DNA of 64,000 nt from Intrasporangium sp. (GCF_036566125.1 NZ_DATCWX010000255.1:2402-66401), one strand, 5' to 3'. Positions 2,217 through 64,000 are shown, numbered from the stretch's first letter. Numbers and translations: made by a program. The notes: a model not told the origin generated them from the letters alone.

Positions 2217-2981
2217 GTGACGGACATCAAGGTTGCGGTGATCGGCGCGAACGGCCGGATGGGCTCCGAGGCCGTAAGGGCGGTCGGGGCGGCTGAGGGA
2301 CTGAGGCTCGTCGGGGCCTACGGCTCGCGTGATGAGCTGGGGGATCTGGGCGGCGCCGACGTCGCTGTCGAGCTGACGGTCCCGGCCGCATCACCGGACA
2401 ACGTCGCCCATTGCGTCGACCGGGGAGTTCACGTCGTCGTCGGCACCACCGGCTGGGACGAGGCCCGGCTGGCAGCCCTCAAGCAGCAGCTCGACGGGGC
2501 ACCGCCCGCCAGCACCGGCTCTGGGGTCGGCGTGCTGATCGCGCCGAACTTCGCGATCGGGGCGCTGCTCATGATGTCGGTCGCCGCCAAGGCGGCCCCG
2601 TACTTCGAATCCGTCGAGATCATCGAGCTGCACCACCCGGGCAAGGTCGACGCGCCGTCCGGGACGGCCGCACGGACGGCGGCGCTCATCGGGGCCGCGC
2701 GAGACGAGGCCGGCCTGCCCGACGTCCCAGACGCAACCACCCACGATCCTGAAGGCGCTCGCGGAGCCCAGCTCAGCGGCATACACGTGCACTCGGTGAG
2801 GCTGCGTGGGCTCGTCGCGCACCAGGAGGTGCTCCTCGGGAACGCGGGCGAGCAGCTGACGATCCGCCACGACTCGTTCGACCGGGCCTCCTTCATGCCC
2901 GGCGTCATCGCCGCGGTCCGCGCCGTCGCAGACCACCCCGGTCTCACCGTGGGATTGGAGAAGTACCTCAGCCTCGACTGA
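2217..2981 (+). CDS. dapB: 4-hydroxy-tetrahydrodipicolinate reductase
   Basis: N-terminal Rossmann motif KVAVIGANGRMG. Also ELHHPGKVDAPSGTA and VRLRGLVAHQEVLLG. Confidence 0.95.
   Translation: MTDIKVAVIGANGRMGSEAVRAVGAAEGLRLVGAYGSRDELGDLGGADVAVELTVPAASPDNVAHCVDRGVHVVVGTTGWDEARLAALKQQLDGAPPASTGSGVGVLIAPNFAIGALLMMSVAAKAAPYFESVEIIELHHPGKVDAPSGTAARTAALIGAARDEAGLPDVPDATTHDPEGARGAQLSGIHVHSVRLRGLVAHQEVLLGNAGEQLTIRHDSFDRASFMPGVIAAVRAVADHPGLTVGLEKYLSLD
2775..2784 (+). repeat. CAGCGGCATAC dispersed repeat copy
   Basis: cccagctcAGCGGCATACacg. Inside dapB, read as L-S-G-I(ATA)-H. Confidence 0.8.
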
Positions 2982-3091
2982 CCCTCAGCATCGCCTGGAC
3001 TGCCCCCTTGCCTTCACCTGGTTCGAGGTGATCCATCCCTCTCGCGAGCGAGCCACTACCTCGATCCCAATACCTCGAACGCAGCTAGCCG

Positions 3092-4045
3092 TCATCCCAG
3101 GGCAGGGATCGCCTCGAACGCCCTCATCACCGCCGCGGGCTGCTCGAAGGCGGGGTCGTCGGCGGCCCCGTCGATGATGTGCAAGGGCCAGCCGTATCGT
3201 TCGCTGGCGCGTTGGGCCACGGACAGTGGCGTCTGGCGGTCCTCGCGACCCCAGATGAGCGTTGTCGGCACCGTGATCCTGGCGAGGTCGGCCTCGGGGA
3301 TCGACCGGGTGCCGAAGGCAGACATGAGGCTGCGCATGGCCGTCTTCTGCTCCCGCGACCTGGCGCCCTCCAGACCCAGCGTCATCAGCGGGTCCCAGTG
3401 TGGGCCCAGCCCCTCCTGCAGCTGCGGGACATCGACGAAGCACTGCCGGAAGAAGCGGTCCCTGCTCGTGGGCGTCGGATGTGCGATGAAGGTGGCGAGG
3501 GTGATGGCGAACGCCGGGGACGGGCGGAGGCGGCTCAGGCCGTGGGTGTCGACCAACGAGAGGCCACGCAGCCGGTCCGGTCGCTCGAGCGCGAAGCGCA
3601 TCGCGATCGCACCGCCAACCAGATGGCCCGCCACGTAGGGAGGCGAGGGGCAGGTCTGCTCGATCAGGTCGTCGAGCCAGGACAGCACACGCTCGCGGTC
3701 GAGCGGCCCGTCTCCCAAACCGGAGGCGCCGTGGCCAGGCAGGTCGGGAGCCACGACACGGTGCGCCGTGGCGAGCTGTGGCATGACGCGCATCCACGTC
3801 AGGGCGAATTCGCCGGGCCCGTGCAGCAGCACGACAGGAGGGCCCTCGCCACCGACGAGCACCGCCGTTGGTATTCCGGCCACGGTCAGGTGCTGCTCGA
3901 GGAGTGGAGTGGCTGCGATCAGCTGCCGGCGCTCCTTCTGCGCACCGTCGACGACCGGTCCTCCATCACGCGCTGGTCCGTTGCTCATCGAACTCACCTC
4001 CCAAGGTTTGTCCTGCAGCTCGACGCTACGTTCTGGCAGCGTCAA
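3092..4045 (-). CDS. alpha/beta-fold hydrolase
   Basis: VVLLHGPGEF oxyanion region, nucleophile-elbow-like HLVGGAIA and a C-terminal DDPAFEQP region. The start is uncertain; an alternative Met lies at 3988. Confidence 0.75.
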   Translation of the reverse strand: MTLPERSVELQDKPWEVSSMSNGPARDGGPVVDGAQKERRQLIAATPLLEQHLTVAGIPTAVLVGGEGPPVVLLHGPGEFALTWMRVMPQLATAHRVVAPDLPGHGASGLGDGPLDRERVLSWLDDLIEQTCPSPPYVAGHLVGGAIAMRFALERPDRLRGLSLVDTHGLSRLRPSPAFAITLATFIAHPTPTSRDRFFRQCFVDVPQLQEGLGPHWDPLMTLGLEGARSREQKTAMRSLMSAFGTRSIPEADLARITVPTTLIWGREDRQTPLSVAQRASERYGWPLHIIDGAADDPAFEQPAAVMRAFEAIPALG

Positions 4046-4156
4046 CCGCGTCGGGAGATGTGCCCATCCGGGAGGCGCCGGCCATGGGTGGAAATGCCCA
4101 CTTGGCCTGCAGGAATGACGAGCGCCGCGAGCCCGCTCGGGTCGACGACGGCCGGG

Positions 4157-6287: not shown

Positions 6288-6877
6288 GCCGCCTCCAGGG
6301 AAGCAGAGAGGCGGACCTCCTCGGCGGTCTCACCGTCAGGGCCGACCACGCGCTGCCGGTGCGCGCCGTCCGAGTCCAGTCCAGCCGCGACGAGGAAAGC
6401 GCGCACCTCCTCTGCGGAGGCCAGGGCCCAAGCGGTCAGCCGGTCGCGTCCGCGGGCGCGCGCCGTGTCGACGACGGCGTGGAGCAAACGGGAGCCATGG
6501 CCCTGGCGCCGCGCGTCCGGATGAACGGCGAGCACGAGCAGCTCGGCGGTGCTGTCGTCGGCGTCGGGATCGCTCGAGGCTCCCACCGCAGCCAAACCGA
6601 CGACCTGCTCACCCGCGCACGCCACGAGCAGCACTCCGTCCCCTGCCGCCGCACCCTCGAGCGTCGCCCGCCACGCGCTCGCGAAGGCCTGGGGCTGGAA
6701 CTCGGCTATGACCTCGGGAGCCAGCTCAGCGGCATACGCCTCCCGGAACACGACGGCCTGGACGAACCCCACTGCGGGGGCATCGGACACTCGGGCCAGC
6801 CGGACGCTGGCGTCGGCAAGGGGACCGGGCGGGTGGTCGTGCTCGTGATGGACGGGGTGGTGCGGTTGGTTCACCAC
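6284..6877 (-). CDS. GNAT family N-acetyltransferase
   Basis: Acetyl-CoA binding-like segment [17 protein letters not shown]. The stop overlaps the azlC start. Confidence 0.7.
6728..6737 (+). repeat. CAGCGGCATAC dispersed repeat copy
   Basis: gagccagctcAGCGGCATACgcc. Inside the minus-strand GNAT gene, read as A-Y-A-A-E-L. Confidence 0.8.
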
Positions 6878-8303: not shown

Positions 8304-9058
8304 TGGGCGAGGATCGTTCTGCCGCATACCTGCTCGGCTTGGCTGATGATGCGATGGTCTATGCGCAGCGGCTGGGCGAGTGGATGACCAACGCCCCGCA
8401 GATCGAGGAGGACATGGCGCTCGGCAACATCGCGCTGGACCTCCTCGGTCAGGCGCGGGGGCTCTATCCCTACGTCGGCTCGCTCGACGGCACGGGCCGG
8501 AGCGAGGACGACTTCGCGATGATGCGGGACGAGCGGGAGTGGCGCAACGTCCACCTCGTCGAGCAGGAGCGGGGTGACTTCGGGCGGGAGATGGCGCGGT
8601 TGCTGTGGTTCTCCGCGTACCAGAAGCAGTTGTATGCCGCTCTGCTCGCTTCCAGCGACGGTGTCCTCGCGGGGGTGGCCGGCAAGGCGCTCAAGGAGGT
8701 CCGCTACCACCACGACCACGCGACGCAGTGGGTCGTGCGCTTGGGGGACGGGACTGAGGAGTCGCACCGGCGGATGCAGGCCGGGCTGGAGTGGGTGCTG
8801 CCCTACCTGCCGGAGCTGTTCGACGACGACCCGGCGAGCGTCGCGGCAGCGGAGGCCGGCGTGGGCGTCCTGCCGTCATCCCTGCACGAGGCCGTAACGT
8901 CGCAGGTGGCCGCGGTGTGCGAGGAGGCGACCCTCGACCTGCACGCCCCGACCCGGCGCACTCGCGGTGGCCGAGAGGGCGTCCACTCGACGCCGATGGG
9001 TTACCTCCTCGCCGAGATGCAGCACATCGCGCGCTCCCACCCCGGTGCGACGTGGTGA
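8303..9058 (+). CDS. paaC: 1,2-phenylacetyl-CoA epoxidase subunit C
   Basis: ATGA overlap with the paaB stop. Motifs LLGLADDAMVYAQRLGEW and EVRYHHDHA. The upstream part of the 7988 ORF is out-of-context read-through. Confidence 0.85.
   Translation: MGEDRSAAYLLGLADDAMVYAQRLGEWMTNAPQIEEDMALGNIALDLLGQARGLYPYVGSLDGTGRSEDDFAMMRDEREWRNVHLVEQERGDFGREMARLLWFSAYQKQLYAALLASSDGVLAGVAGKALKEVRYHHDHATQWVVRLGDGTEESHRRMQAGLEWVLPYLPELFDDDPASVAAAEAGVGVLPSSLHEAVTSQVAAVCEEATLDLHAPTRRTRGGREGVHSTPMGYLLAEMQHIARSHPGATW
8632..8641 (-). repeat. dispersed repeat, degenerate copy (exact 10-mer, weak flank)
   Basis: ttGTATGCCGCTctgctcgcttcc. Inside paaC, read as L-Y-A-A-L. Confidence 0.5.
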
Positions 9059-9574: not shown

Positions 9575-10696
9575 ATGACCGACCTCACGACCGAGGGCGC
9601 TCCCGCCCGCCATCGGGCCCGTTTCCACGAGCTGACCGTCGCCGACGTCGAGCGGCTCACCGACGAGTCCGTTGCCATCACCTTCGCGGTCCCGCCCGAG
9701 CTCGCCGACGAGTACCGGTTCGAGCCTGGCCAGCATTTGACGCTGCGCGCCATCATCAACGGCGAGGAGGTCCGGCAGTCCTACTCGATCTGTCAGTCGC
9801 GCGCGACCGCCACCGCGAGCCGTACCCTGCGCGTCGCCGCTGCGCGCGTCCCTGAGGGACGGATGTCGAACTGGCTCAACGACGTCGTCGCCGCCGGGGA
9901 CGTTCTCGAGGTCATGACCCCGTTGGGCAGCTTCACGTGTGTAACCCAGCCCAGCGGCATACGGCATCACCTCGCGATTGCGGCAGGCTCCGGGATCACG
10001 CCGGTGATGTCCCTGCTCGCCACCGCGCTCGAGGAGGAGCCGCGGTCACGCGTGACGCTGCTCTACGGCAACCGCAGGACGAGCTCGATCATGTTCCTCG
10101 AGGAGCTCGAGGACCTCAAGAACCGCTTCCCGGGGCGTTTCCACCTCATCAACGTCCTCTCCCGCGAGGCGCAGGACGTCGAGCTCTTCAGTGGGCGGCT
10201 CGACCCGGAGCGGCTCGAACGGATCTTCGCCACCCTCGTGCCGGTCGGGTCCGTGGACGAGTGGTACCTCTGCGGGCCCTTCGGGATGGTGACCGCGGCC
10301 GAGGCGCTGCTCACGGAGCAGGGGGTCGAGCCGCACCACGTCCACCACGAGATCTTCCACGTCGACGACGGCACCGAGCCGAAGCGGAAGGTCGTCATCG
10401 ACGAGGGGGCGCCGCCCGAGGCGACGGTGACGGTCAACCTCGACGGGCGCACGACCGTGATCCCCATGCCGAGCCGCGACGAGACCATCCTCGACGCGGC
10501 GCTTCGCCTGCGGCCGGATGCCCCCTTCTCGTGCACCAACGGCGTCTGCGGCACGTGCCGGGCGAGGCTCGTCTCCGGCGAGGTGCGGATGGACCGGAAC
10601 TACGCGCTCGAGCCGGACGAGGTGGCGGCCGGCCTGGTCCTCACGTGCCAGAGCCACCCGGTGAGCGACGACGTCTCCCTCGACTACGACGCCTGA
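9575..10696 (+). CDS. paaE: phenylacetate-CoA oxygenase/reductase subunit PaaE (FNR-like plus 2Fe-2S ferredoxin)
   Basis: RQSYSICQS flavin-binding motif, GSGITPVMS NAD motif and a C-terminal CTNGVCGTCRARL plant-type 2Fe-2S motif. Confidence 0.9.
   Translation: MTDLTTEGAPARHRARFHELTVADVERLTDESVAITFAVPPELADEYRFEPGQHLTLRAIINGEEVRQSYSICQSRATATASRTLRVAAARVPEGRMSNWLNDVVAAGDVLEVMTPLGSFTCVTQPSGIRHHLAIAAGSGITPVMSLLATALEEEPRSRVTLLYGNRRTSSIMFLEELEDLKNRFPGRFHLINVLSREAQDVELFSGRLDPERLERIFATLVPVGSVDEWYLCGPFGMVTAAEALLTEQGVEPHHVHHEIFHVDDGTEPKRKVVIDEGAPPEATVTVNLDGRTTVIPMPSRDETILDAALRLRPDAPFSCTNGVCGTCRARLVSGEVRMDRNYALEPDEVAAGLVLTCQSHPVSDDVSLDYDA
9953..9962 (+). repeat. CAGCGGCATAC dispersed repeat copy
   Basis: acccagcccAGCGGCATACggcatc. 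Inside paaE, read as P-S-G-I(ATA)-R-H. Confidence 0.85.
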
Positions 10697-10779
10697 GCCG
10701 ACGCGACTGACCGCCAGACGGCCAGCTCCGTGAGATGTGGGACGTGGGCTGGGAGGCTGGGTGCGGGGGAGCCGGACCC

Positions 10780-10788
10780 GCGGCATAC
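10780..10788 (+). repeat. dispersed repeat, 9/10 variant
   Basis: gagccggacccGCGGCATACggcc. Intergenic, about 50 nt upstream of the thyA start. Confidence 0.55.
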
Positions 10789-10835
10789 GGCCTCACCTGC
10801 TCGGTTGTGACACCGGGGCCAACTACGCTGCCTGT

Positions 10836-11677: not shown

Positions 11678-12142
11678 ATGACGAACGTGACGATGATCGC
11701 CGCCGTCGGCCGCAACGGCGTGATCGGCGACGGCTCCTCGATGCCGTGGCACATCTCCGAGGACCTCAAGTTCTTCAAGCGCACGACCATGGGGCACCCG
11801 ATGATCATGGGCCGGCGAACGTTCGACTCAGTCGGCGTGCTGCCCGGCCGCCGGACCATCGTGCTGACCCGGCAGGAGGACTGGCGACACCCGGACGTCG
11901 AGACCGCGCACTCGCTGGCCGAGGCCCTGAGCCTCGCCGGACCCGCTGACGAGGTGTTCGTCGTCGGCGGCGGCGAGGTCTACCGGGAGGCCATGCCGTA
12001 TGCCGCTCGCCTCGTCATCACGGAGGTCGACCAGTCCCCGGAGGGCTCAGTCACCTTTCCCGACGTCGATCCCACAGAGTGGCAGGAGACGGAACGCGAG
12101 CCGCACGACGGGTTTGCGTGGGTCACCTACCTCCGCCGCTGA
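11678..12142 (+). CDS. folA: dihydrofolate reductase
   Basis: IAAVGRNGVIGDGSSMPWHISEDLKFFKRTTMGHPMIMGRRTF, located directly downstream of thyA. Confidence 0.9.
   Translation: MTNVTMIAAVGRNGVIGDGSSMPWHISEDLKFFKRTTMGHPMIMGRRTFDSVGVLPGRRTIVLTRQEDWRHPDVETAHSLAEALSLAGPADEVFVVGGGEVYREAMPYAARLVITEVDQSPEGSVTFPDVDPTEWQETEREPHDGFAWVTYLRR
11998..12007 (-). repeat. dispersed repeat, degenerate copy (exact 10-mer plus GGCAT flank)
   Basis: catgccGTATGCCGCTcgcc. Inside folA, read as M-P-Y-A-A-R. Confidence 0.55.
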
Positions 12143-17590: not shown

Positions 17591-17674
17591 TGCCCATGAA
17601 GATAGGGACGCTTCCCCCGCGTTGTCCACCGCGTCGTGGCAGCGTGTCGTCATCTGAGACACCACCTTGATGCC

Positions 17675-17684
17675 GTATGCCGCT
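17675..17684 (-). repeat. CAGCGGCATAC dispersed repeat copy
   Basis: gatgccGTATGCCGCTgggctcgctg. Intergenic, upstream of ftsK. Confidence 0.85.
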
Positions 17685-17793
17685 GGGCTCGCTGCCCCTG
17701 TCCGTCCGCCGGGTGCCCCGACAGGATGAGTGAATCGGTCGTGGTGCGCGTGTGACGCGTGAGTTCAGCGTGGCGTTGACGTACCGTGCCATC

Positions 17794-20745
17794 ATGGCGA
17801 CACGTGGGTCCGGCAGTGCGCGCTCGAGCTCATCGGCACCGAGCCGTGCCGCGACGGGTTCTCGGGGAACCGGGTCCGCTCGTGGGCAAGGGACATCGAC
17901 CCGGTCAACCTCTGGACGCGGCGGCGGACGCACGACGAAGCGGCCGGCCCCACGGGCCAACGCGAAGAGCGGCGGACTCCCGCTGCCGTTGCGGGCCGTG
18001 CGCAACACCTGGATGGGGGTCTCCCACGTGGCCGGTGGTGCAGTGCGCCGGGTGGGCACGAGCGCGCGCGACCTCGAGCCCGAGCACCGTCGGGACGGGC
18101 TCGGCTTCGCCCTCATCGCCCTGGCCATCGTCGTCGCCGCCCGCGAGTGGTGGGGTGTCCACGGCACCTTCGGTCAGGTCGTCCACGCGGTCTTCGCGGG
18201 CACGTTCGGCCGCATCGCCTACGCCGTCCCCCTCGTGCTGCTCGCGCTCGGCCTGCGCCTGCTGCGCGCCCCGGAGGACGAGGCCGCGACGAACCGCATC
18301 ATCGTCGGCACCATTGCGCTGACCTTCGCGTCATGCGGTCTCGCACACCTCAGCGACGGGATCCCCAACCCGCCGGACGGGGCCGAGGGCATGCGGGCCG
18401 CCGGAGGCATCATCGGTTTCCTCGCGTCGAGCCCGCTCGCGGCGGCGGTCTCGCCGTACGGAGCCCTGGCCATCCTCATCCTCCTCGGGATCTTCGGCCT
18501 GCTCGTCGTCACCGCGACCCCCGTCAACCTCATCCCGCACCGGCTCCGCCAGCTGCGCGACCTCGTGCTGCACCGTGAGCACGAGCAGGACCAGGCGCAG
18601 GATGAGACCGCCGAGGGAGGCGCCAAGCGGGGCCGGCGCAAGGCGGTGGACCTGTCCGAGCGCGAAGGCGACGAGGCCTTCCGCCAGGCCGCGATGCGGG
18701 AAGCCGAGGACGAGCCCACGCTGCGCCTGCGCCCTGGCGAGAAGCGCCCCACCGCTCCCGGCCTGCTCGCGCCGCGCCCGAGCGGCGCCTCTGGTTCGAC
18801 CCAGGCGATCGACGCCACCGACCCCCGGACCCACGGTGCTCCCGACACGCAGACCGGCGCCAAGCCGGAGCTGGCGCCGCCGCCGACGTCGACGATGCCC
18901 GCGCGGGTCGAGCAGCTCTCCCTCCAGGGCGATGTGACCTATCACCTTCCGGATCTCGCGATGCTGGCTCACGGCGCCCCTCACAAGACGCGCAGCCAGG
19001 CCAACGACAAGGTCGTCGAGTCGCTCACCCACGTCTTCGACCAGTTCGACATCGACGCCGCCGTCACGGGCTTCACGCGCGGTCCGACGGTGACCCGTTA
19101 CGAGGTCGAGCTTGGTTCCGGGACGAAGGTCGAACGCGTCACGGCCCTGTCCAAGAACATCGCCTACGCGGTCGCCTCGGCGGACGTGCGCATCCTCAGC
19201 CCGATCCCGGGCAAGAGCGCGATCGGCATCGAGATCCCCAACGCCGACCGTGAGAACGTCGCCCTCGGCGACGTCCTGCGCAGCCAGACCGCCCGGTCCA
19301 ACGAGCACCCGATGGTGATGGGGGTCGGCAAGGACGTCGAGGGCGCCTACGTCATCGCGAACCTCGCCAAGATGCCCCACCTGCTCGTCGCGGGGGCCAC
19401 CGGCTCCGGCAAGTCGAGCTTCGTCAACTCGATGATCACCTCGATCCTCATGCGCTCCACGCCCGAGGAGGTGCGCCTCGTCCTCGTCGACCCGAAGCGG
19501 GTGGAGCTGACCGCCTACGAGGGCATCCCGCACCTCATCACGCCGATCATCACCAGCCCGAAGAAGGCGGCCGAGGCGCTGCAGTGGGTCGTGCGCGAGA
19601 TGGACCAGCGCTACGACGACCTCGCGGCTTTCGGCTTCAAGCACGTCGACGACTTCAACAAGGGGGTCCGCGCAGGCAAGGTCAAGCCGTTGCCGGGTTC
19701 CGAGCGGCAGCTGACCACCTACCCCTACCTGCTCGTCGTCGTCGACGAGCTGGCTGACCTGATGATGGTCGCCCCACGCGACGTCGAGGAGTCCGTGGTC
19801 CGCATCACGCAGCTCGCCCGGGCAGCTGGCATCCACCTTGTGCTCGCCACGCAGCGGCCGTCCGTGGACGTCGTGACCGGCCTCATCAAGGCCAACGTCC
19901 CGTCGCGGATGGCCTTCGCAACGAGCTCTCTCGCCGACTCGCGTGTCGTCCTCGACCAGCCGGGAGCCGAGAAGCTCATCGGCCAGGGTGACGCCCTCTT
20001 CCTCCCGATGGGCGCGAGCAAGCCGATGCGCGTCCAGGGTGCGTGGGTCAACGAGTCGGAGATCCACGAGGTGGTCAAGCGCGTCACGACCCAGCTCAAA
20101 CCCAACTACGTCGAGAACGTCACGGTCGCCCAGCCGAAGAAGCAGATCGACGACGACATCGGTGATGACCTCGACGTGCTGCTGCAGGCGACCGAGCTCG
20201 TCGTGACGACGCAGTTCGGGTCGACGTCGATGCTGCAGCGCAAGCTGCGCGTCGGCTTCGCCAAGGCGGGACGCCTCATGGACCTGCTCGAGTCACGGGG
20301 GGTCGTCGGCCCGAGCGAGGGGTCGAAGGCGCGTGACGTCCTCGTCCGGCCGGACGACCTCGAGCAGACCCTGGCGCTCCTGCGGGGAGAGGATGTCCCG
20401 CACCCCAACGAGCCGGCCGAGCCAGCCGAGGAGCCGGTGCCCTTCGCCGGTGACCCGAGCATCGTCGAGAGACAGCTGGCAGAGGACGCGGCCGCTGAGG
20501 AGAGCGCCCCAAGCACGGCCAGCCCAGCGGCATACGACCCGATGGCCGTCGGAGACGGACAGGTGCGGACGGCGGCTATGGTCGTCCAGCGCGGCGAGCG
20601 CCGTGCGCACGGAGAGGACCTCGACGACCTGCCCAGCGGGCCGGTCGCAGCCTGGCAGCCTGGTGACCTGACCCCGGTCGCCACCGAGGACGACGATGAG
20701 TCGGAGGATGCGTGGCAGCTGACCGATCGGCGCGACGAGCGCTGA
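17794..20745 (+). CDS. ftsK: DNA translocase FtsK
   Basis: N-terminal TM segments and a Pro/Ala-rich linker. Walker A LVAGATGSGKS, LVVVDELADLMM and the gamma domain LQRKLRVGFAKAGRLMDLLESRGVVGP. A ~130-aa acidic tail follows. Confidence 0.95.
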   Translation: MATRGSGSARSSSSAPSRAATGSRGTGSARGQGTSTRSTSGRGGGRTTKRPAPRANAKSGGLPLPLRAVRNTWMGVSHVAGGAVRRVGTSARDLEPEHRRDGLGFALIALAIVVAAREWWGVHGTFGQVVHAVFAGTFGRIAYAVPLVLLALGLRLLRAPEDEAATNRIIVGTIALTFASCGLAHLSDGIPNPPDGAEGMRAAGGIIGFLASSPLAAAVSPYGALAILILLGIFGLLVVTATPVNLIPHRLRQLRDLVLHREHEQDQAQDETAEGGAKRGRRKAVDLSEREGDEAFRQAAMREAEDEPTLRLRPGEKRPTAPGLLAPRPSGASGSTQAIDATDPRTHGAPDTQTGAKPELAPPPTSTMPARVEQLSLQGDVTYHLPDLAMLAHGAPHKTRSQANDKVVESLTHVFDQFDIDAAVTGFTRGPTVTRYEVELGSGTKVERVTALSKNIAYAVASADVRILSPIPGKSAIGIEIPNADRENVALGDVLRSQTARSNEHPMVMGVGKDVEGAYVIANLAKMPHLLVAGATGSGKSSFVNSMITSILMRSTPEEVRLVLVDPKRVELTAYEGIPHLITPIITSPKKAAEALQWVVREMDQRYDDLAAFGFKHVDDFNKGVRAGKVKPLPGSERQLTTYPYLLVVVDELADLMMVAPRDVEESVVRITQLARAAGIHLVLATQRPSVDVVTGLIKANVPSRMAFATSSLADSRVVLDQPGAEKLIGQGDALFLPMGASKPMRVQGAWVNESEIHEVVKRVTTQLKPNYVENVTVAQPKKQIDDDIGDDLDVLLQATELVVTTQFGSTSMLQRKLRVGFAKAGRLMDLLESRGVVGPSEGSKARDVLVRPDDLEQTLALLRGEDVPHPNEPAEPAEEPVPFAGDPSIVERQLAEDAAAEESAPSTASPAAYDPMAVGDGQVRTAAMVVQRGERRAHGEDLDDLPSGPVAAWQPGDLTPVATEDDDESEDAWQLTDRRDER
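20526..20535 (+). repeat. CAGCGGCATAC dispersed repeat copy
   Basis: ggccagcccAGCGGCATACgac. Inside the FtsK C-terminal tail, read as S-P-A-A-Y-D. Confidence 0.85.
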
Positions 20746-21562: not shown

Positions 21563-22744
21563 TCAGCCGTCGAGCTCCTCGATCGTCCTGAGGCTCGGTC
21601 GCCGGGTTTCCTGCAGGTCCCGGGCGACGGCCTCGACGTCGCGCATGACCCGCAGGGTGTTGCCGCGGACGAGCTGTGCAAGGTCCACGTCGGACCACTT
21701 GCGGTCCACGAGCGCAGCGACGAGCCGGGGGTACCCGCTCACGTCCTCGAGCCCCACCGGATAGGTGTCGGTGCCGTCATAGTCGCCGCCGATACCCACG
21801 TGGTCGATCCCCGCGACGTCACGCACGTGCTCGAGATGGGCGACGACGTCCTCGATCGTCGCGTCCGGCTTCGGGTGCTCGCGCCGGTACTGGGTGGCGA
21901 AGCGGTGGAAGGCGACCCAGTCCTTGGCATCGACGCCCCGCTCTGCAGCTGCAGCTGCAGCCTCGACGCGCCACTGCGCAGTGGCGGGGGAGAGGAACTC
22001 CGGGACGAAGGTCACCATGCACACGCCACCGTTGTCCCGGAGGCTCTCGAGCACGTCGTCCGGGACGTTGCGCGGTGAGTCGCACACGGCCCGGGCGGAG
22101 GAATGGCTGAAGATCACCGGTGCGACGCTCACCTCGATGGCCTGTCGCATCGTCGATGCCGCGACGTGGCTGAGGTCGACCATCATCCCGATCCGGTTCA
22201 GCTCCCGCACCACCTCACGACCGAACGCCGTGAGCCCGCCCACGGCTGGGACATCCGTGGCGGAGTCTGCCCAGGGCACGTTGTCGTTGTGCGTCAGCGT
22301 GAGATACCGCACCCCAAGGACGTGGAGGGCCCGCAGCGTGGCGAGTGAGCACCCGATCGAGTGGCCACCCTCCGCGCCGAGGAGGGACGCGATGCGGCCC
22401 TGGGACCTGGCCACGTCGACGTCCTCAGCGGTCCGTGCGAGAGCGAGCTCAGCGGCATACGACCTGATCATGTGGTGGACGCCGTCAATCTGTTCGAGGG
22501 TGGCGGTCACGGCGGCGTCGCCCTGCAGGCTGCTCGGCACGAACACGGACCAGAACTGCCCCCCGACACCGCCGGCCCGGAGGCGGGGCAGATCCGTGAC
22601 CGTCGAGGCCACGGGAGTCGAGATGTCGAGGCGCTCGAAGTCGTAGCCGGCCTGCACCCTGGCCTCCCAGGGGAGGTCGTTGTGGCCGTCCATGAGCGGG
22701 TGCTCGGCGAGGAGTGCGTGTGCACGGGCGAGCGCGTCGGGCAT
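21563..22744 (-). CDS. membrane dipeptidase (peptidase M19 family)
   Basis: [26 protein letters not shown] and GIGGDYDG motifs. Confidence 0.85.
22451..22460 (+). repeat. CAGCGGCATAC dispersed repeat copy
   Basis: gagcgagctcAGCGGCATACgac. Inside the minus-strand dipeptidase gene, read as S-Y-A-A-E-L. Confidence 0.85.
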
Positions 22745-22781: not shown

Positions 22782-24245
22782 ATGACCCCTCCCGCCGCGG
22801 CCCCCACCCGGAGTGTCGCCCTCGTCACCCTGGGGTGCACTCGCAACGAGGTCGACTCGGAGGAGCTGGCCGGCCGGCTGCAGTCGGAGGGGTGGACCCT
22901 GGTCGACGACGCCGCGGAGGCGGACGTGGCGGTCGTCAACACGTGCGGCTTCGTCGAGCAGGCCAAGAAGGACTCCATCGATGCCCTGCTCGAGGCCTCT
23001 GACCTGAAGGAGGACGGCCGCACCCGGGCCGTCGTCGCGGTGGGCTGTCTGGCCGAGCGGTACGGCAAGGACCTCGCGGACCAACTGCCGGAGGCGGATG
23101 CGGTCCTCGGTTTCGACTCGTACCGGGACCTCTCGACGCATCTGCGCACGATCCTTGGCGGCGGCCACGTGCCGAGCCATGCGCCCGGCGACCGGCGACG
23201 CCTCCTTCCGCTCTCGCCGGTGGCGCGGCAGGACGTGGCCGTGCAGGTCGCGCTCCCCGGCCACAACACCATGCCGTATGCCGCTGAGCCGGGTCCCGCA
23301 CCCGCCAGCGGGCCGCGCGTGGTCCGCGCCCGCCTCGACGGACGGCCGTGGGCGCCGCTCAAGATCGCATCGGGTTGCGACCGTCGATGCTCGTTCTGCG
23401 CGATCCCGATGTTCCGGGGGGCCTTCGTGTCCCGGCCGCCCGCCGACGTCGTCGCGGAGGCACGCTGGCTGGCTGCCCGGGGTGTCAAGGAGCTGTTCCT
23501 CGTCTCCGAGAACTCGACGTCCTACGGCAAGGACCTCGGGGACCTGGGGCTGCTCGAGAAGCTGCTGCCGGAGCTGACCGCGGTGGACGGGATCGAGAGG
23601 GTGCGGGTCAGCTATCTCCAGCCTGCCGAGATCCGGCCGGGGTTGCTCGAGGCGATGGCGCGGACTCCGGGCGTCGTGCCGTACTACGACATCTCCTTCC
23701 AGCACGCGTCGGAGCCGGTGCTGCGGCGGATGCGACGCTTCGGCTCGCGCGAGGCCTTCCTCGACCTGCTGGCGCGGGTGCGGGCGTCCGCTCCCGAGGC
23801 CGGGATCCGGTGCAACGTCATCGTCGGCTTCCCCGGCGAGACAGACCAGGACGTCGAGGAGCTCGAGGCCTTCCTCACCGAGGGCAGGCTCGATGTGGTC
23901 GGCGTCTTCGGTTACTCCGACGAGGACGGGACCGAGGCGGAGACCTTCGCGCAGAAGCTGCCGTCCGGGGTCATCGCTGAGCGCGTCGACCGCCTCACTC
24001 GTCTCGTCGAGGAGCTCAACGCGCAGCGCGCCGAGGAGCGGATCGGCGAGGCCGTCGAGGTCCTCGTCGAGGAGGTCGACGCAGAGGACGGGCGGGTCGT
24101 CGGACGCGCGGCGTTCCAGGGGCCCGACGTCGATGGCGTCACCTATGTGGAGGCTGGCGATGGACGACAGCCAGCTGTGGGCGACCTCGTGCCTGCGGTC
24201 GTCGTGGCGACCGAGGGCATCGACCTCGTCGCGGAGTTGCGATGA
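22782..24245 (+). CDS. rimO: ribosomal protein S12 methylthiotransferase RimO
   Basis: [17 protein letters not shown]-terminal domain, radical-SAM [11 protein letters not shown] and a C-terminal TRAM domain. Confidence 0.9.
23276..23285 (-). repeat. CAGCGGCATAC dispersed repeat copy
   Basis: catgccGTATGCCGCTgagccggg. Inside the RimO inter-domain linker, read as M-P-Y-A-A-E-P. Confidence 0.85.
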
Positions 24246-44272: not shown

Positions 44273-44290
44273 GCCACCCACCAAGGGGTC

Positions 44291-44320
44291 GTATGCCGCT
44301 GAGCCGGCTCAGCGGCATAC
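44291..44320. repeat. perfect 30-nt palindrome made of two inverted CAGCGGCATAC-repeat copies (candidate terminator)
   Basis: GTATGCCGCTGAGCC|GGCTCAGCGGCATAC, 19 nt after the hflX stop. Confidence 0.9.
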
Positions 44321-44401
44321 CGCTACGTGGGGCGCCTCCCGCACTTTGACCCTGGCTGGCCCCTCACTGTCGTTGTCGGTCCCGTCGGAGAGGATGCACG
44401 G

Positions 44402-46558: not shown

Positions 46559-48274
46559 TCAGCTCAGGCCGGTGATGTTGCCCTCCGCATCCACGTCGAT
46601 CCGCTGGGCGTTCGGGGCGGCGGACAGGCCGGGCATGGTCCGCATCTCGCCGCAGATGGCGTAGACGTAGCCGGCGCCGACCGCCGCTCGCACCTCGCGC
46701 ACCGGCATCCGCCAGCCCCGCGGCGCACCCTTGAGCGTCGGATCCGAGGAGATCGACAGGTGCGTCTTGGCGATGACGACCGGCAGGCCACCGAAGCCGA
46801 GGCGCTCGTAGTCCCGCAGGGCCCTCGCCGCTGCCGGGCTCACGTCGATGCCGTCCGCCCCGTAGATCTGCATCGCGATGGCCTCGATCTTCTGCTCCAG
46901 CGGCAGGTCGAGTGGATAGAGGAACTCGAAGCTCGTGTGCTCCCGGGCCGCCTCCATGACGACCTCGGCCAGCTCGATGGCACCGGCGCCGCCCTCGGCC
47001 ACGTGCCTGGTCACGGCGTTGCGCACCCCGATGCCGTTGCAGTAGCGCCGGATCACGTCGTGCTCGGAGTCGTGGTCCTGTGGGAAGGCGTTGATCGCGA
47101 CGACCGGCTGCACGCCGAACCTGCGCACGATCTCGATGTGCTTGCGCAGGTTGGGCAGCCCGGCCTGGACGTCAGTGGGATTCTCGTCGAGCAGGCCGGG
47201 AGGCAGCGGCTTGCCGGGCCGGATGAGGTAGTTGCCCGAGTGCGACTTGAGCGCACGCACCGTGACGACAATGACCGCGACGTCGGGCTTGAGCCCGCTC
47301 ACGCGGCACTTGACGTTGAAGAACCGCTCAGCGCCCATGTCCGCGCCGAACCCGGCCTCGGTGATGGCGTAGTCGCTGCCCTGGATGGCGATGAGATCGG
47401 CGGTGACCGATGAGGTGCCGGTCGCGATGTTGCCGAACGGGCCGCAGTGGATGATGGCGGGACCGCCCTCGAGGGTCTGCAGTAGGTTCGGCTTGATCGC
47501 GTCCTTGAGCATCGCGGCCATCGCCCCCGCGGCGCCGAGGTCCTCGGCGGTGACGCTCTTGCCCTCGGTGGTGTAGCCGATGACGATGCGGCCGAGACGC
47601 TGCCGCAGGTCGGAGAGCGACTTGGCGAGCGTGAGCAGCACCATGATCTCGCTGGCGGCCGTGATGTCGAAGCCGGTCTCGCGCGGCACACCGTCCTCAC
47701 GGGCTCCCAGGCCGATGACGACGTTGCGCAACGATCGGTCGTTGACGTCGAGGACCCGGCGCCAGGTGATGTTGCGGACGTCGATGCCGAGGGCGTTGCC
47801 CTGGTGCAGATGGTTGTCGACCATCGCGGCGAGCAGGTTGTGCGCTGCGGTGATGGCGTGGAAGTCGCCCGTGAGGTGCATGTTGAGCCGCTCCATCGGG
47901 ACGACCTGGCTGTACCCGCCGCCGGCGGCGCCGCCCTTGATCCCGAATGTCGGGCCCATCGATGGCTGGCGTAGCGCGACGACCGCCCGTTTCCCGAGGC
48001 GCTGGAGGCCCTGGGCCAGGCCCACCGACGTGGTCGTCTTGCCCTCACCGAGGGGTGTCGGCGTCACTGCCGTGACGACGACGTACTTTCCAGCCGATGC
48101 CGTATGCCGCTGGGCTGGCTCGTCGAGGAACGCGAGGTCGATCTTGGCGACGTCCCGGCCGTAGGGCTCGAGGTGCTCCGGCGAGATGCCGAGCTGGGCG
48201 CCGATCTCGTCCATCGGCCGCAGGGTTGCCGCGGAGGCGATGTCGAGGTCTGAGGGAAACGGCGTGGTGGTCAT
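46559..48274 (-). CDS. fhs: formate--tetrahydrofolate ligase
   Basis: Start at MTTTPFPSDLDIA. VTAVTPTPLGEGKTTTSVGL, and the 571 aa length fits the family. Confidence 0.95.
   Translation of the reverse strand: MTTTPFPSDLDIASAATLRPMDEIGAQLGISPEHLEPYGRDVAKIDLAFLDEPAQRHTASAGKYVVVTAVTPTPLGEGKTTTSVGLAQGLQRLGKRAVVALRQPSMGPTFGIKGGAAGGGYSQVVPMERLNMHLTGDFHAITAAHNLLAAMVDNHLHQGNALGIDVRNITWRRVLDVNDRSLRNVVIGLGAREDGVPRETGFDITAASEIMVLLTLAKSLSDLRQRLGRIVIGYTTEGKSVTAEDLGAAGAMAAMLKDAIKPNLLQTLEGGPAIIHCGPFGNIATGTSSVTADLIAIQGSDYAITEAGFGADMGAERFFNVKCRVSGLKPDVAVIVVTVRALKSHSGNYLIRPGKPLPPGLLDENPTDVQAGLPNLRKHIEIVRRFGVQPVVAINAFPQDHDSEHDVIRRYCNGIGVRNAVTRHVAEGGAGAIELAEVVMEAAREHTSFEFLYPLDLPLEQKIEAIAMQIYGADGIDVSPAAARALRDYERLGFGGLPVVIAKTHLSISSDPTLKGAPRGWRMPVREVRAAVGAGYVYAICGEMRTMPGLSAAPNAQRIDVDAEGNITGLS
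48102..48111 (-). repeat. CAGCGGCATAC dispersed repeat copy
   Basis: gatgccGTATGCCGCTgggctggctcgtc. Inside fhs (minus strand), read as E-P-A-Q-R-H-T-A-S just before the conserved GKYVVVTAVTPTP. Confidence 0.85.
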
Positions 48275-51079: not shown

Positions 51080-52039
51080 ATGACCGAAACGGCCGTTCCC
51101 TCCCTCGTCCTCGTGAGCGGACCCGAGGACGTGCTCGTCGAGCGGGCGGTCGCGAGCGTCGTTACGGACGCCAAGGCGTCGGGCGCCGAGGTGATCCGGG
51201 TCGAGGCCGCCGGCTACGAGCCCGGTTCGCTCATCCTCCATGCAAGCCCGTCCCTCTTCGGCGGGACGAAGTGCATCGTCGTCAAGGGGCTGCACGAGTC
51301 GCCGGACGAGCTCCAGGTCGACCTGCTCTCTCTCTTGGGAGCGCCGCTCGAGGACGTGTCCCTCGTCGTGACCCACGGCGGCGGGATGAAGGGCAAGAAG
51401 GTCCTCGACACCCTCAAGAAGCAGCAGGCGAAGCTCATCGAGTGCCCGGCGATCAAGTCCGACCGGGACAAGTCGGACTTCGTCACGAAGGAGTTCGCCC
51501 AGGCGCGACGCAGGATCACGAGCGACGGTGTCCGCGCCCTCGTCGAGGCGGTCGGCAAGGACGTGCGCGAGCTCGCAGCGGCGTGCAGCCAACTCATCGC
51601 GGACACCGAGGGCACCGTCGATGACGCGATCGTGGACACCTACCACGGCGGCAAGGTGGAAGCGAGCGGCTTCCGTGTCGCGGACGCGGCGATCGCCGGC
51701 CAGGCCGGGGAGGCGCTTCGGCTGCTGCGCCATGCCATCGCCAGCGGTCTCGACCCGGTGCCCATCGTTGCGGTGCTCGCCTCCCAGTTGCGCCAGCTCA
51801 TCAAGGTCGGCTCCGCGGGGCGGGGCAGCTCCGCGCAGGTCGCCAAGAGCCTGAGCCTGGCGCCCTGGCAGGTCGACCGGGCCCGTCGTGCCGTGACGCA
51901 CTGGAGCCCCGAGGGGCTTGCGGTCGCCGTGCAGGCCGTGGCGGCGGCCGACTTCGAGGTCAAGGGTGGCGGGCGCGATCCCGTGTACGCGGTGGAGCGG
52001 GCGATCCTCACCATCACCCGAGCCCGCGCGGCGCAGTGA
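51080..52039 (+). CDS. holA: DNA polymerase III subunit delta
   Basis: LVLVSGPEDVLVERAV, SPSLFGGTKCIVVKG, a C-terminal helical domain and adjacency to rpsT. Confidence 0.85.
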   Translation: MTETAVPSLVLVSGPEDVLVERAVASVVTDAKASGAEVIRVEAAGYEPGSLILHASPSLFGGTKCIVVKGLHESPDELQVDLLSLLGAPLEDVSLVVTHGGGMKGKKVLDTLKKQQAKLIECPAIKSDRDKSDFVTKEFAQARRRITSDGVRALVEAVGKDVRELAAACSQLIADTEGTVDDAIVDTYHGGKVEASGFRVADAAIAGQAGEALRLLRHAIASGLDPVPIVAVLASQLRQLIKVGSAGRGSSAQVAKSLSLAPWQVDRARRAVTHWSPEGLAVAVQAVAAADFEVKGGGRDPVYAVERAILTITRARAAQ

Positions 52040-52047
52040 CCGGGCCC

Positions 52048-52057
52048 AGCGGCATAC
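52048..52057 (+). repeat. CAGCGGCATAC dispersed repeat copy
   Basis: gaccgggcccAGCGGCATACggcc. Intergenic, 9 nt after the holA stop. Confidence 0.85.
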
Positions 52058-52249
52058 GGCCTCGTCTGGCTCGGCCAGTTTGGAGGCGGCGCTGAGCCGC
52101 TGGTAACTTTGTGCCTTGCGTGCGCGCTCAGGTCGTGCGCGTATGCATGCAGCAATCCAGAGCAGCTCACGCAAGGGTGCCCCACGCCCGGTCCCGAGCA
52201 GCTTTGCCGCCCTCTAACGGCAACCATTCCGACCAAGAAAGTACGTCAC

Positions 52250-52575: not shown

Positions 52576-53100
52576 TCAGCTGTAGTGGGTGCGCACGGCT
52601 GCGATGACGTCCTTGTAGCGGTTGAGTGACAGGACGGCGCCCTCCCGGCGCACATACGCCGGGTCGAGCCGAAGCAGGCGGTTGACGCGCACCTCGCTCG
52701 AGCGTCCGCGGTGGTCCCACGCCCCGGTCCCGATGTCGATCCACTCGCGACCGGCGCGGCGCTCCTGGTCCTCGTCCCGGTCGTGGTCCTGACTCGTCAG
52801 CTGCAGCCCGATGAGCAGGTTCCCCTCGCGCCCGATGACGAGGACGGGACGGTCCTTGCCGCGGGCGTGGTCCTCCTCGTACGGCACCCACGCCCAGACG
52901 ATCTCACCCGGGTCCGGCGCACCGTCGGGATTCGGCGCGTACGTCATGTCGGGCAGCGTCGTCGCGTCTCCCAGATAGGGGGCGTATGCCGCTGGGCTCG
53001 CTTCCGACGGATGCCGCCGGGCGGGTGCCCCGCCCCGCTTCGTCGTTGCTCGGGTGAGGCTGCGCAGTGCAGTTTTGATCCGCGCCAGGGTTGACGACAT
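52576..53100 (-). CDS. PemK/MazF-like (SH3-fold) growth-inhibitor family protein, solitary
   Basis: GEIVWAWVPYEEDHARGKDRPVLVIGREG core preceded by a ~50-aa basic tail. No adjacent antitoxin ORF is apparent. The family call is from memory. Confidence 0.5.
   Translation of the reverse strand: MSSTLARIKTALRSLTRATTKRGGAPARRHPSEASPAAYAPYLGDATTLPDMTYAPNPDGAPDPGEIVWAWVPYEEDHARGKDRPVLVIGREGNLLIGLQLTSQDHDRDEDQERRAGREWIDIGTGAWDHRGRSSEVRVNRLLRLDPAYVRREGAVLSLNRYKDVIAAVRTHYS
52984..52993 (-). repeat. CAGCGGCATAC dispersed repeat copy
   Basis: gggcGTATGCCGCTgggctcgcttcc. Inside the N-terminal tail of the PemK-like ORF, read as S-P-A-A-Y-A. Confidence 0.85.
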
Positions 53101-57521: not shown

Positions 57522-57569
57522 GGGGACGGGGAGGGCGCGTGAGGGCACGCGGGCCGTGGGAGCCAGCCC

Positions 57570-57579
57570 AGCGGCATAC
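57570..57579 (+). repeat. CAGCGGCATAC dispersed repeat copy
   Basis: gggagccagcccAGCGGCATACgtg. Intergenic, upstream of lepA and 49 nt after hairpin B. Confidence 0.85.
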
Positions 57580-57662
57580 GTGAAAATGCGGTTCGGAAAG
57601 CATGGGAGGATTGGCTGATCCCACCGCCCCCCAAGACCCAACTCTGCGAGGTTCTCTCCACC

Positions 57663-62917: not shown

Positions 62918-62971
62918 CCTTCCGGCGGGTGCGCGCGTCCAGCGGGTGCCCTGCCGCCTGAGACAATGGCC

Positions 62972-62981
62972 GTATGCCGCC
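62972..62981 (-). repeat. dispersed repeat, 9/10 variant
   Basis: atggccGTATGCCGCCcagctcgctcc. Overlaps the hemW start codon. Confidence 0.5.
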
Positions 62982-64000
62982 CAGCTCGCTCCCCGACGGA
63001 GACGCTCCGCCCGCGTCGGGCGAGCTCCCGAGCTCGGCCCTGGCGGGCCTCGCCACGACTGACCTGGGCATCTACGTGCACGTGCCGTTCTGCCGTGTCC
63101 GGTGCGGCTACTGCGACTTCAACACCTACACGCTGACCGAGCTTGCCGCCCGGGACGGGTCAGGGCCGTCGATCGGTCTCGACACCTATGCCGATGCCGC
63201 GCTCGCGGAGCTCGACCTGGCCCGCTCCGTGCTTGGGGGCGAGCCGCCCACTGTCTCAACGGTCTTCGTTGGTGGTGGAACTCCGACGATGCTGAGGTCA
63301 CGTGACCTCGTGAGGGTACTCAGCGGCATACGGACTCGTTTTGGGCTTGCACCCGACGCGGAGGTCACGACGGAGGCCAACCCCGACTCCGTGACGCCGG
63401 AGTCGCTGGCCGAGCTCGCGGCCGGAGGCTTCACCCGCGTCTCGCTCGGGATGCAGTCCGCGGTCCCGCACGTGCTCGCGACCCTCGAGCGGACCCATGA
63501 CCCCGACAACGTCGCGCGCGCGGTCGATGCGGTCCGAGCGGCCGGGATGCAGGTCAGCGTGGACCTCATCTACGGGACGCCGGGGGAGTCGCTCGACGAC
63601 TGGCGGCGGAGCCTCGACGTGGCCATCGCGCTGGAACCGGACCACATCTCCGCCTACGCGCTCGTCGTCGAGGAGGGGACCAAGCTGGCCGCCCAGGTGC
63701 GGCGTGGCCAGGTCCCGATGCCGGAGGACGACGACGAGGCGGACAAGTACGAGTTCGCGGACGAGGTGCTGTCGGCGGCCGGCTACGACTGGTACGAGGT
63801 GAGCAACTGGGCCAGGTCGGAGCAGGCCCGATGCCGGCACAACGTCGCCTACTGGTCAGGCGCGAACTGGTGGGGGATCGGTCCGGGTGCGCACAGCCAC
63901 GTCGGGGGTGTGCGGTGGTGGAACGTCAAGCACCCCGCTGCCTACGCGGCCAGGTTGGCGACCGGACAGTCGCCGGCGCAGGGCCGGGAGACGCTGACCG
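62974..64000 (+). CDS. hemW: radical SAM heme chaperone HemW (HemN-like), 3' end outside window
   Basis: GIYVHVPFCRVRCGYCDFNT radical-SAM cluster motif, GGGTPTML and SLGMQS. The frame is open to the window end. Confidence 0.85.
   Translation, partial: MPPSSLPDGDAPPASGELPSSALAGLATTDLGIYVHVPFCRVRCGYCDFNTYTLTELAARDGSGPSIGLDTYADAALAELDLARSVLGGEPPTVSTVFVGGGTPTMLRSRDLVRVLSGIRTRFGLAPDAEVTTEANPDSVTPESLAELAAGGFTRVSLGMQSAVPHVLATLERTHDPDNVARAVDAVRAAGMQVSVDLIYGTPGESLDDWRRSLDVAIALEPDHISAYALVVEEGTKLAAQVRRGQVPMPEDDDEADKYEFADEVLSAAGYDWYEVSNWARSEQARCRHNVAYWSGANWWGIGPGAHSHVGGVRWWNVKHPAAYAARLATGQSPAQGRETLT
63322..63331 (+). repeat. CAGCGGCATAC dispersed repeat copy
   Basis: agggtactcAGCGGCATACggac. Inside hemW, read as L-S-G-I(ATA)-R-T. 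Confidence 0.8.

Follow-up and report, generated by a model that had tools for sequence, protein, structure and literature searches.

A short, non-palindromic DNA word is scattered at very high density through a 64,000-nucleotide stretch of Intrasporangium sp. (GCF_036566125.1 NZ_DATCWX010000255.1:2402-66401; referred to here as the window, with positions counted from its first letter) and through the DNA of its relatives. Its fundamental unit is the 8-mer CGGCATAC, which is common to several genera and is set in lineage-specific flanks. Across Intrasporangium and related soil actinobacteria the word is 20- to 400-fold over-represented with respect to chance. By analogy with known systems, we propose that this motif may be a genomic 'self' tag of the DNA uptake sequence (DUS) type, spread by biased DNA transfer and recombination. 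We rank this explanation first, while giving it slightly less than an even chance of being right.

Abundance, form and lineage dialects of the word

The 10-mer AGCGGCATAC has 21 exact copies in the window (12 on the plus and 9 on the minus strand). Dinucleotide-preserving shuffles gave a mean expectation of 0.02 copies, and Markov models of orders 1-5 built from the window gave 0.05-0.8. It is the top-ranked 10-mer of the window, and the next ranks are filled by its own overlapping sub-words. The 12-mer YCAGCGGCATAC was found 12 times in forward and 6 times in reverse orientation. Compared to the 21 perfect copies, only three have one mismatch (10779, 28002 and 62972), and all three carry the family flanks. 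An earlier note, made from the sequence alone, had reported the 21 copies of the 10-mer, the 18 copies of the 12-mer with this same strand split and the three one-mismatch variants. All of these were reproduced at the coordinates it gave, apart from the first variant, which it had placed at 10780. Its G+C content of about 70%, judged by eye, is 0.694 when computed, and its expectation of well under one copy per 64 kb agrees with the shuffles and the Markov models.

When the window copies were aligned, a graded and asymmetric consensus extending from about -12 to +14 around the core was obtained (G.rAGCsAGCyC-AGCGGCATAC-GgCat), and 129 independent copies from other Intrasporangium-clade genomes gave a matching logo. 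The unit of the window clade is thus ~25 nt long and non-palindromic (GAGCSAGCYC-AGCGGCATAC-GGCAT). In this clade the bare 8-mer is nearly confined to the long form, as 21 of the 23 CGGCATAC in the window are part of AGCGGCATAC. CGGCATAC and its reverse complement are different words, and one unit alone shows no tendency to form a hairpin (fold z = 0.3 and 1.5), as expected from the earlier statement that the motif is not a palindrome. The extension beyond the 12-mer described in that note is also real; the fundamental unit, however, is the 8-mer core common to several genera, and the 25-mer is the dialect of the Intrasporangium clade.

We scanned one genome per species with the 20-mer query AGCYCAGCGGCATACGGCAT in 8-kb blocks (taxon names are those of the database records). 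At least 96 blocks were recovered, and with a single exception they belonged to nine Intrasporangium-clade genomes among the matches listed, namely I. calvum PheN6, Intrasporangium sp. DVR and seven metagenome-assembled genomes (MAGs), two of which are labelled 'uncultured Actinomycetota'. A match in a Burkholderiales MAG was set aside as chance, being one copy in 55% G+C DNA. Over 710 kb from these nine genomes, the density of non-seed copies of the 10-mer was 0.16-0.28 per kb in every genome. With a genome size of ~4 Mb for Intrasporangium (PMC3035309), this density corresponds to the order of a thousand copies per genome. The enrichment is therefore not confined to the window, an outcome that the earlier note had named as one that would speak against its claim, but is genome-wide in the nine Intrasporangium-clade genomes among the matches listed.

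We also counted CGGCATAC in the dapB and holA neighbourhoods of relatives, where 0.2-0.7 copies per locus are expected. Terrabacter aerolatus has 15 copies in 20.8 kb at one locus (L221) and 12 in 21.0 kb at another (L348), Humibacillus xanthopallidus has 10 in 20.8 kb (L219), and an Intrasporangium sp. MAG has 20 in 20.8 kb (L220). The highest numbers were obtained from a Dermatophilaceae lineage, with 25 copies in 17.0 kb (L265) and 27 in 20.8 kb (L266). A Lapillicoccus MAG has four in 10.1 kb (L267), and Terracoccus luteus has none in 20.9 kb (L218). The density in the sister lineages (Terrabacter, Humibacillus and other Dermatophilaceae) is 0.3-1.5 per kb. We ranked 80 metagenome loci by DapB identity; most of those at 68-77% have 0.2-1.3 copies per kb and several at 66-71% have no CGGCATAC. 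At 64% or below there is either none or a single copy at chance level, long contigs of ~70% G+C included. As these comparable ~70% G+C relatives are devoid of copies, the word is restricted to a clade, patchy within it, and not a by-product of base composition. Shuffles, Markov models and the zero counts in 70% G+C relatives together rule out chance or composition as the cause.

The flanks of the core differ with the lineage. The window clade has CAG-core-GGCAT plus a long 5' arm, Terrabacter and Humibacillus have (G)GA-core-G, one Intrasporangium MAG has core-C, and a Dermatophilaceae lineage has CG-core-C. In the loci for which the preceding base was tabulated, GGCATAC follows a C in all but one case.

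Placement, origin and upkeep of the copies

The two orientations are used about equally (12:9 in the window and about 85:83 over ten loci), and this also holds within single contiguous loci (9:11, 6:9, 14:11 and 15:12). Copies lying close together, on the other hand, are strictly arranged. In 766 kb of the window clade, all 37 of the 37 pairs less than 400 bp apart are inverted, many of them with 17-30 nt between the copies. These pairs occur in both arrangements, with spacings of 17-349 nt and unrelated spacer sequences. About 29% of the Intrasporangium-clade copies belong to such inverted doublets, which fold into long hairpins; the window pair after hflX reaches -41 kcal/mol in context, and isolated pairs fold at z of about -5. 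The inverted pair after a gene that had been noticed earlier is this one, a perfect 30-nt palindrome, and its arrangement is the rule for close pairs in the clade.

Copies are denser in convergent spacers (3.1 per kb) than in other spacers (~1 per kb). In the Intrasporangium-clade blocks, ~62% of the copies lie in the 17% of sequence left uncalled by a crude gene caller. After Pfam annotation of the window, 11-13 of the 24 copies (one-mismatch copies included) were assigned to genes and 8-11 to spacers, which make up ~10% of the sequence; the earlier split, with 9-10 of 24 in spacers, was about right. The copies in the window are spaced more evenly than expected at random (coefficient of variation 0.50, P = 0.0008; P = 0.005 for the 8-mer).

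In the dense dialect of L266, 24 of the 27 copies are inside genes and use five of the six frames, so that AAY, YAA, GIP, VCR and GMP are encoded. Antisense copies of the window clade prefer one frame, which reads P-Y-A-A-E/G-L-A in 22 of 27 cases. A shared protein motif is ruled out by the occurrence of copies in five of six frames of unrelated proteins, as the earlier note had argued. A known RNA family or a tRNA fragment was likewise ruled out by Rfam and tRNA scans of the window, in which no family or tRNA overlaps any copy; the sole Rfam match is a SAM-IV riboswitch, and tRNAs are absent.

The coding copies are informative about how the word comes to its sites. The peptide of the dihydrofolate reductase (DHFR) copy, MPYAARLVITEVD, aligns without gaps to LRHADKLIVTEID of a solved DHFR, and that of the DapB copy, GARGAQLSGIHVHSVR, aligns without gaps to the DapB proteins of Corynebacterium and M. 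tuberculosis. Among 120 DapB homologues, the great majority (about 100) have ARVDGIPVH at this place. AQLSGIHVH, or a peptide within 1-2 residues of it, is limited to the nearest relatives of the window (P0002-P0007) and a single match that is more distant (P0080). Three or four residues of DapB have thus been overwritten by the motif, a near-invariant proline among them. Other lineages accommodate the core at the same site as GAC-GGC-ATA-CCS, with a rare ATA codon. As the alignments are gapless and conserved residues are overwritten, we concluded that the coding copies arose by substitution and not by insertion. At the equivalent of window positions 2765-2789, the DapB of Terracoccus luteus (L218) reads DGIH (GGC ATC CAC), a Pro-to-His change that the window clade also has; it may be what is left of a former motif copy and would then hint at secondary loss of the system.

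Once present, the copies are maintained better than their surroundings. A 91%-identical relative shares 14.6 kb with the window, and all five window copies in this stretch are present in it as well. The 25-nt motif spans differ there at 1 of 124 positions, compared to 9.0% divergence elsewhere (P = 1e-4). Sites in dapB, a GNAT gene, paaE, the DHFR gene, hflX and hemW are common across genera, and at these six the flanks switch with the lineage, being CAG-CGGCATAC in the window and GGA-, CGA- or GAC-CGGCATAC in the other lineages. Turnover is seen as well. A paaC copy is found only in the window clade and is several substitutions away from the sequence of the other lineages. A copy in a ligase gene is absent from Terrabacter, where the loop segment is 9 nt shorter. 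The ortholog (L126) of the spacer between ftsK and an aminotransferase gene has a second, inverted copy and ~280 bp of extra DNA. Substitution against protein constraint, upkeep above the surroundings and the concerted change of flanks together point to a trans-acting reader of the word whose specificity drifts between lineages.

Individual copies and their neighbourhood in the window

The window carries core actinobacterial genes, including dapB, paaABCDE, thyA-folA, dapA, the RNase J gene and ftsK, followed by recA (apparently with two inteins), recX, miaB, def, miaA, dapF, hflX, the formate-tetrahydrofolate ligase gene, holA, rpsT, lepA and hemW. The encoded HolA is 86% identical to HolA proteins of I. 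calvum, which places the window in a non-calvum member of the clade. The first copy (2765..2789, +) is inside dapB (2217-2981, +), in the DapB_C domain, and is the one that yields AQLSGIHVH where relatives have ARVDGIPVH. The copy at 6718..6742 (+) runs antisense within a GNAT acetyltransferase gene (6284-6877, -), at a site orthologous in Humibacillus, Terrabacter and the Intrasporangium MAG. Within a paaC-like gene (8303-9058, +), the antisense copy at 8627..8651 (-) is a lineage-specific gain through multiple substitutions, the site being without the word in L219 and L220. The next copy (9943..9967, +) falls in the FAD/NAD interdomain linker of a paaE-like reductase gene (9413-10696, +), and its site is common to L219 and L220 with dialect flanks. 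The one-mismatch copy CGCGGCATAC (10769..10793, +) is at the 5' edge of the open reading frame (ORF) 10737-11648, a thymidylate synthase by synteny. The DHFR gene (11678-12142, +) contains an antisense copy (11993..12017, -) giving MPYAARL, in the gapless alignment to solved DHFRs described above; the site is also occupied in Humibacillus, Terrabacter and L223.

An intergenic copy (17670..17694, -) separates a SAM-IV riboswitch and its aminotransferase gene (-) from ftsK (+). The riboswitch (17464-17590, -; 100.8 bits) is upstream of a class-V aminotransferase gene (16008-17561, -), and the motif copy lies another ~85 nt upstream, in the region from which the aminotransferase gene and ftsK diverge. 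The FtsK ORF (17752-20745, +) continues for ~130 residues past its gamma domain (809-865 of 997), and this C-terminal tail holds a copy (20516..20540, +) that is kept in the 91%-identical ortholog. The copy at 22441..22465 (+) is antisense within an M19 dipeptidase gene (21563-22744, -) and gives SYAAELA, and that at 23271..23295 (-) is antisense in an interdomain linker of a RimO/MiaB-like gene (22680-24245, +) and gives MPYAAEP. A macro-domain protein ORF (27529-28530, +) has the one-mismatch copy AGCGGCATCC inside it (27992..28016, +) and an antisense copy in its C-terminal tail (28477..28501, -).

In the recA ORF (28759-32199, +; 1146 aa), the RecA domain is interrupted by intein-splicing, LAGLIDADG_3 and LAGLIDADG_2 homing-endonuclease domains, an arrangement that suggests two inteins. 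Over these 3.4 kb the G+C content is lower (0.656) and there are zero motif copies. The copy at 32854..32878 (+) is intergenic, 22 nt past the recX stop (32841). Another (35355..35379, -) follows the miaB stop (35269) and precedes the deformylase domain, where the def ORF has its 5' edge, and an intergenic one (39904..39928, +) is directly upstream of the dapF start, with the DapF domain beginning at ~39948. The N-terminal extension of hflX (42752-44272, +) carries a copy (42879..42903, +) whose orthologous site in Terrabacter (L348) has other flanks. The inverted pair (44286..44325; cores at 44291, -, and 44311, +) begins 19 nt past the hflX stop, and its palindrome GTATGCCGCTGAGCC/GGCTCAGCGGCATAC is terminator-like.

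The copy in the formate-tetrahydrofolate ligase gene (46559-48529, -) is at 48097..48121 (-), on the same strand as the gene and in a variable N-terminal loop. An intergenic copy (52038..52062, +), the core of which starts 9 nt past the holA stop (52039), is upstream of rpsT. The copy at 52979..53003 (-) is in the 5' region of, or just upstream of, a MazF/PemK-like toxin gene (52576-53100, -) whose Pfam domain begins at residue 64; this gene is located between rpsT and an ABC transporter, an arrangement kept in Terrabacter (L348, 11528-12139). A further intergenic copy (57560..57584, +) is ~80 nt upstream of lepA (57663-59513, +). The hemW-like radical-SAM gene (62962-63999, +) has the one-mismatch copy GGCGGCATAC at its 5' edge (62967..62991, -), where Terrabacter L348 has an orthologous CGGCATAC site, and an internal copy (63312..63336, +) giving VLSGIRT, for which the orthologous Terrabacter site has dialect flanks.

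Other repeats were also encountered. An unrelated family with the core GAGTGTGCA (TCGAGTGTGCAGTT...), which includes tandem 36-37-nt units, occurs 45 times in the Intrasporangium blocks of the relatives (for example, L126 4440-4700) and zero times in the window. A longer element is present twice in L220 (19616 and 20758), with the core between inverted arms (GTGTGCGG...GGGGCA-CGGCATAC-CGCACACAG). Two scans of viral contigs gave single unrelated matches only, and no phage of these hosts was identified among the contigs. One of these matches goes back to a phage family, in which about 30 viral contigs of ~48% G+C (L224-L264, metagenome 3300045988) share a 16-mer, CAGCGGCATACGGCAT, within one homologous gene segment, which is unrelated to the actinobacterial motif.

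A putative self tag, its rivals and its meaning

The nearest counterparts of the word are the uptake sequences. In the Neisseriaceae, DUS dialects share a conserved core, inverted pairs are found at terminators, intragenic copies occupy permissive regions and some family members have no DUS (Frye et al. 2013, PMC3630211); the sequence is GCCGTCTGAA, with CTG as the defining core (PMC3630211). The word described here is, like the DUS, a hyper-abundant and non-palindromic 10-12-mer, present on both strands about once per 1-3 kb, with lineage dialects around a conserved core. It shares with the DUS the frequent inverted pairs that form stem-loops at transcript ends, the intragenic copies in permissive regions and the relatives that lack the word. 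It is not a DUS by sequence, as the CTG core of GCCGTCTGAA is replaced by CGGCATAC/GTATGCCG. Its hosts are also different, being high-G+C Gram-positive Actinobacteria without an outer membrane and without a known ComP-type minor pilin or competence, and the window dialect is longer (about 25 nt). Thus the pattern is that of the DUS, whereas the sequence is unrelated, the phylum and cell envelope are others, and any receptor would necessarily be a different one. Read as its reverse complement, the window dialect starts with ATGCCGTATGCC, which matches at 9 of 12 positions, the CTG core excepted, what we take to be the Neisseria AT-DUS, ATGCCGTCTGAA; we take this likeness to be a coincidence.

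The uptake signal sequence (USS) of Pasteurellaceae, with the core AAGTGCGGT and AT-rich flanks, has a different sequence and belongs to a different phylum. It is similar in having a short core with a graded flanking consensus of nearly 30 nt, many copies within genes in preferred frames that give tolerated peptides, and an equal use of both orientations.

If the word is a self tag of this type, a lineage-specific trans-acting factor would recognise it as DNA, through the 8-mer core CGGCATAC and over ~25 nt in the window clade. Fragments with the word would pass from cell to cell within the lineage in preference to others, by uptake or another kind of transfer, and would then recombine into the chromosome. 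A mutation that creates or improves a copy would be over-transmitted (molecular drive), and copies would build up where they are tolerated, in spacers, interdomain linkers and protein tails, and in conserved domains at a cost. Inverted pairs in 3' spacers may double as hairpin terminators. When the specificity of the recogniser shifts, all sites would follow, which would give rise to dialects. The recogniser, the uptake or transfer of DNA and the drive are the steps that we infer.

Several points weigh against this proposal. We found neither comEA nor comEC beside holA in the window (48186-52039) or in Terrabacter (L348, 7693-10960), a DinG-like helicase being present instead; in M. tuberculosis, comEA-comEC is presumably located upstream of holA. 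In the window and the loci of relatives that were examined, genes for competence, a pilus or a receptor were not seen, and no report of natural transformation in these genera was found in the literature. The 96 or more blocks were chosen for containing a copy, the sister lineages are represented by one or two loci of 10-21 kb each, and the intergenic fraction comes from a crude caller based on G+C by codon position. The even spacing seen in the window was not significant in nine other loci from sister lineages. Biased-transfer drive and site-by-site structural selection fit the pattern alike, and the pattern alone cannot separate them. The comparison with the DUS made in the earlier note is strengthened by the dialects, hairpin pairs, substitutional coding copies, balanced orientation and conservation at orthologous sites, and is left without comEA/comEC at the expected locus.

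The main rival is a word of the HIP1 type. The octamer could be kept by selection on its chromosome-wide distribution, in the service of nucleoid or chromosome architecture, or by an orphan methyltransferase together with biased repair, with no role in DNA transfer. A nucleoid-protein binding site, listed as an alternative in the earlier note, may also apply. The model is the highly iterated palindrome HIP1 (GCGATCGC) of cyanobacteria, which is 15-300-fold over-represented, conserved and periodic, and has lineage variants (PMC5861425, PMC4390886). Over-representation in this range and conservation at both coding and non-coding sites were also observed for CGGCATAC. The two words share an octamer core, often at more than one per gene and with an unsettled function, conservation at orthologous sites, variants by lineage and genomes that have none. 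The enrichment of the 8-mer core here (20- to 50-fold, up to 1.5 per kb, in genes and in many frames) and the even spacing in the window are consistent with such a role, and an accessory methyltransferase gene would be expected to give a patchy distribution. HIP1, however, is palindromic and tied to orphan methyltransferases, whose usual sites are palindromic too, and the word here is asymmetric, with a long asymmetric flank in one clade. Single-base biased repair cannot build a 25-nt graded consensus, and selection per site, with ~1000 sites, should be too weak against a near-invariant proline or rare codons. The exclusive inverted pairing at 3' spacers is a trait of the DUS and is not described for HIP1, and the even spacing is not reproduced in other lineages. 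On this balance we consider a HIP1-like word unlikely, although it is the explanation that competes most seriously with the self tag.

The remaining alternatives are considerably weaker. A signal on the donor side, in which the 8-mer is read by an FtsK/TraB-type double-stranded DNA translocase or a conjugation-like system and leads to preferential export with the same drive, appears improbable. Eight nucleotides is the length read by FtsK-family gamma domains (at the FtsK-orienting polar sequences, KOPS, and SpoIIIE recognition sequences, SRS) and by Streptomyces TraB (at the TraB recognition sequences, TRS). The core is exactly 8 nt long, the evidence for a trans-acting recogniser and drive applies equally, and the absence of comEA/comEC from the expected holA locus fits as well. 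Yet the known TRS/clt words form a cluster at a plasmid locus and are not hyper-abundant genome-wide, neither a conjugative element nor a TraB-like gene turned up in the sequences examined, and the 25-nt dialect exceeds a gamma-domain site. A miniature mobile element, of the repetitive extragenic palindrome (REP/REPIN) or miniature inverted-repeat transposable element (MITE) kind, would have spread by transposition and left single copies as decayed halves of hairpin doublets. The doublets of about 25-nt units in spacers, the share of copies in them (~29%), the ~60% of copies in spacers by crude calling and the one orthologous spacer that differs by an extra copy and ~280 bp would suit such an element. 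REPs, however, are extragenic, individually palindromic and spread by insertion mediated by REP-associated tyrosine transposases (RAYTs). Here a single unit does not fold, the doublets have no fixed arrangement, spacing or spacer, and neither target-site duplications nor conserved internal sequence are present. Moreover, 24 of 27 copies are intragenic in the dense dialect, and orthologous sites are retained from genus to genus with altered flanks. For the coding copies, the gapless DHFR and DapB alignments with overwritten conserved residues rule out insertion and refute the short REP/MITE-like element that the earlier note had listed as an alternative. No RAYT (IS200/IS605-like Y1) transposase was found among the window proteins scanned; the genomes themselves were not searched. 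As an account of the family as a whole, we regard such an element as very improbable.

Least probable of all is a polar signal, either a Chi-like stop for AdnAB/RecBCD or a KOPS-like guide for FtsK. Like Chi and KOPS/SRS (5-8 nt), the word is short, over-represented and of a kind that a DNA-processing motor could read. It occurs once per 1-3 kb and is conserved in core genes, and the window motif contains AGCGG, which we take to be the Chi of B. subtilis. Known signals of this class are strongly skewed along the replichore and only few-fold enriched. In contrast, the word is balanced in every contiguous stretch (12:9 over 64 kb), which largely refutes a polar signal and disfavours the Chi-like alternative of the earlier note, and its 20- to 400-fold enrichment is far above that of known Chi. 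A 25-nt graded consensus with obligate inverted pairing is not Chi-like, and the word is patchy among close relatives, yet AdnAB and FtsK are encoded by core genes.

Two arguments place the self tag of the DUS type ahead of these rivals. One of ~1000 sites is hardly worth a conserved proline or a rare codon, which favours drive over selection site by site. Biased uptake followed by homologous recombination is, in addition, the only established process that gives the whole pattern. With somewhat more reserve than for the tag itself, we suggest, again by analogy, that the word may be a family-wide uptake or transfer signal with the core CGGCATAC and genus-level dialects, and thus an instance of sequence-specific recognition of 'self-DNA' in Gram-positive Actinobacteria.

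No publication describing the word was found in the literature on the word itself, on uptake sequences in Actinobacteria or on competence in Intrasporangium and Terrabacter, which agrees with the earlier remark that it is not a described actinobacterial repeat; there is no mention of the motif in the genome paper of I. calvum (PMC3035309). In the literature retrieved, Neisseriaceae and Pasteurellaceae were the only groups for which words of the uptake type had been described. No genomic trace of habitual DNA exchange within a lineage is clearer than a sequence-specific uptake signal. If the proposal is true, the word would be a third and independent case, in high-G+C Gram-positive bacteria of soil and wastewater, and would indicate an unrecognised natural transformation or other selective transfer route in Actinobacteria. 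Intrasporangium, Terrabacter, Humibacillus and their relatives, including Dermatophilaceae of activated sludge, would regularly swap chromosomal DNA via a receptor, and dialect shifts would act as barriers between lineages. Close relatives with the word, with another dialect or with none would provide a natural experiment for finding the receptor, and placing the local dialect on donor DNA would be a testable handle for genetic tractability. If the word is instead structural or linked to methylation, it would be an asymmetric counterpart of the unsolved HIP1 of cyanobacteria. Under either reading, the word measurably reshapes protein sequences in these bacteria.

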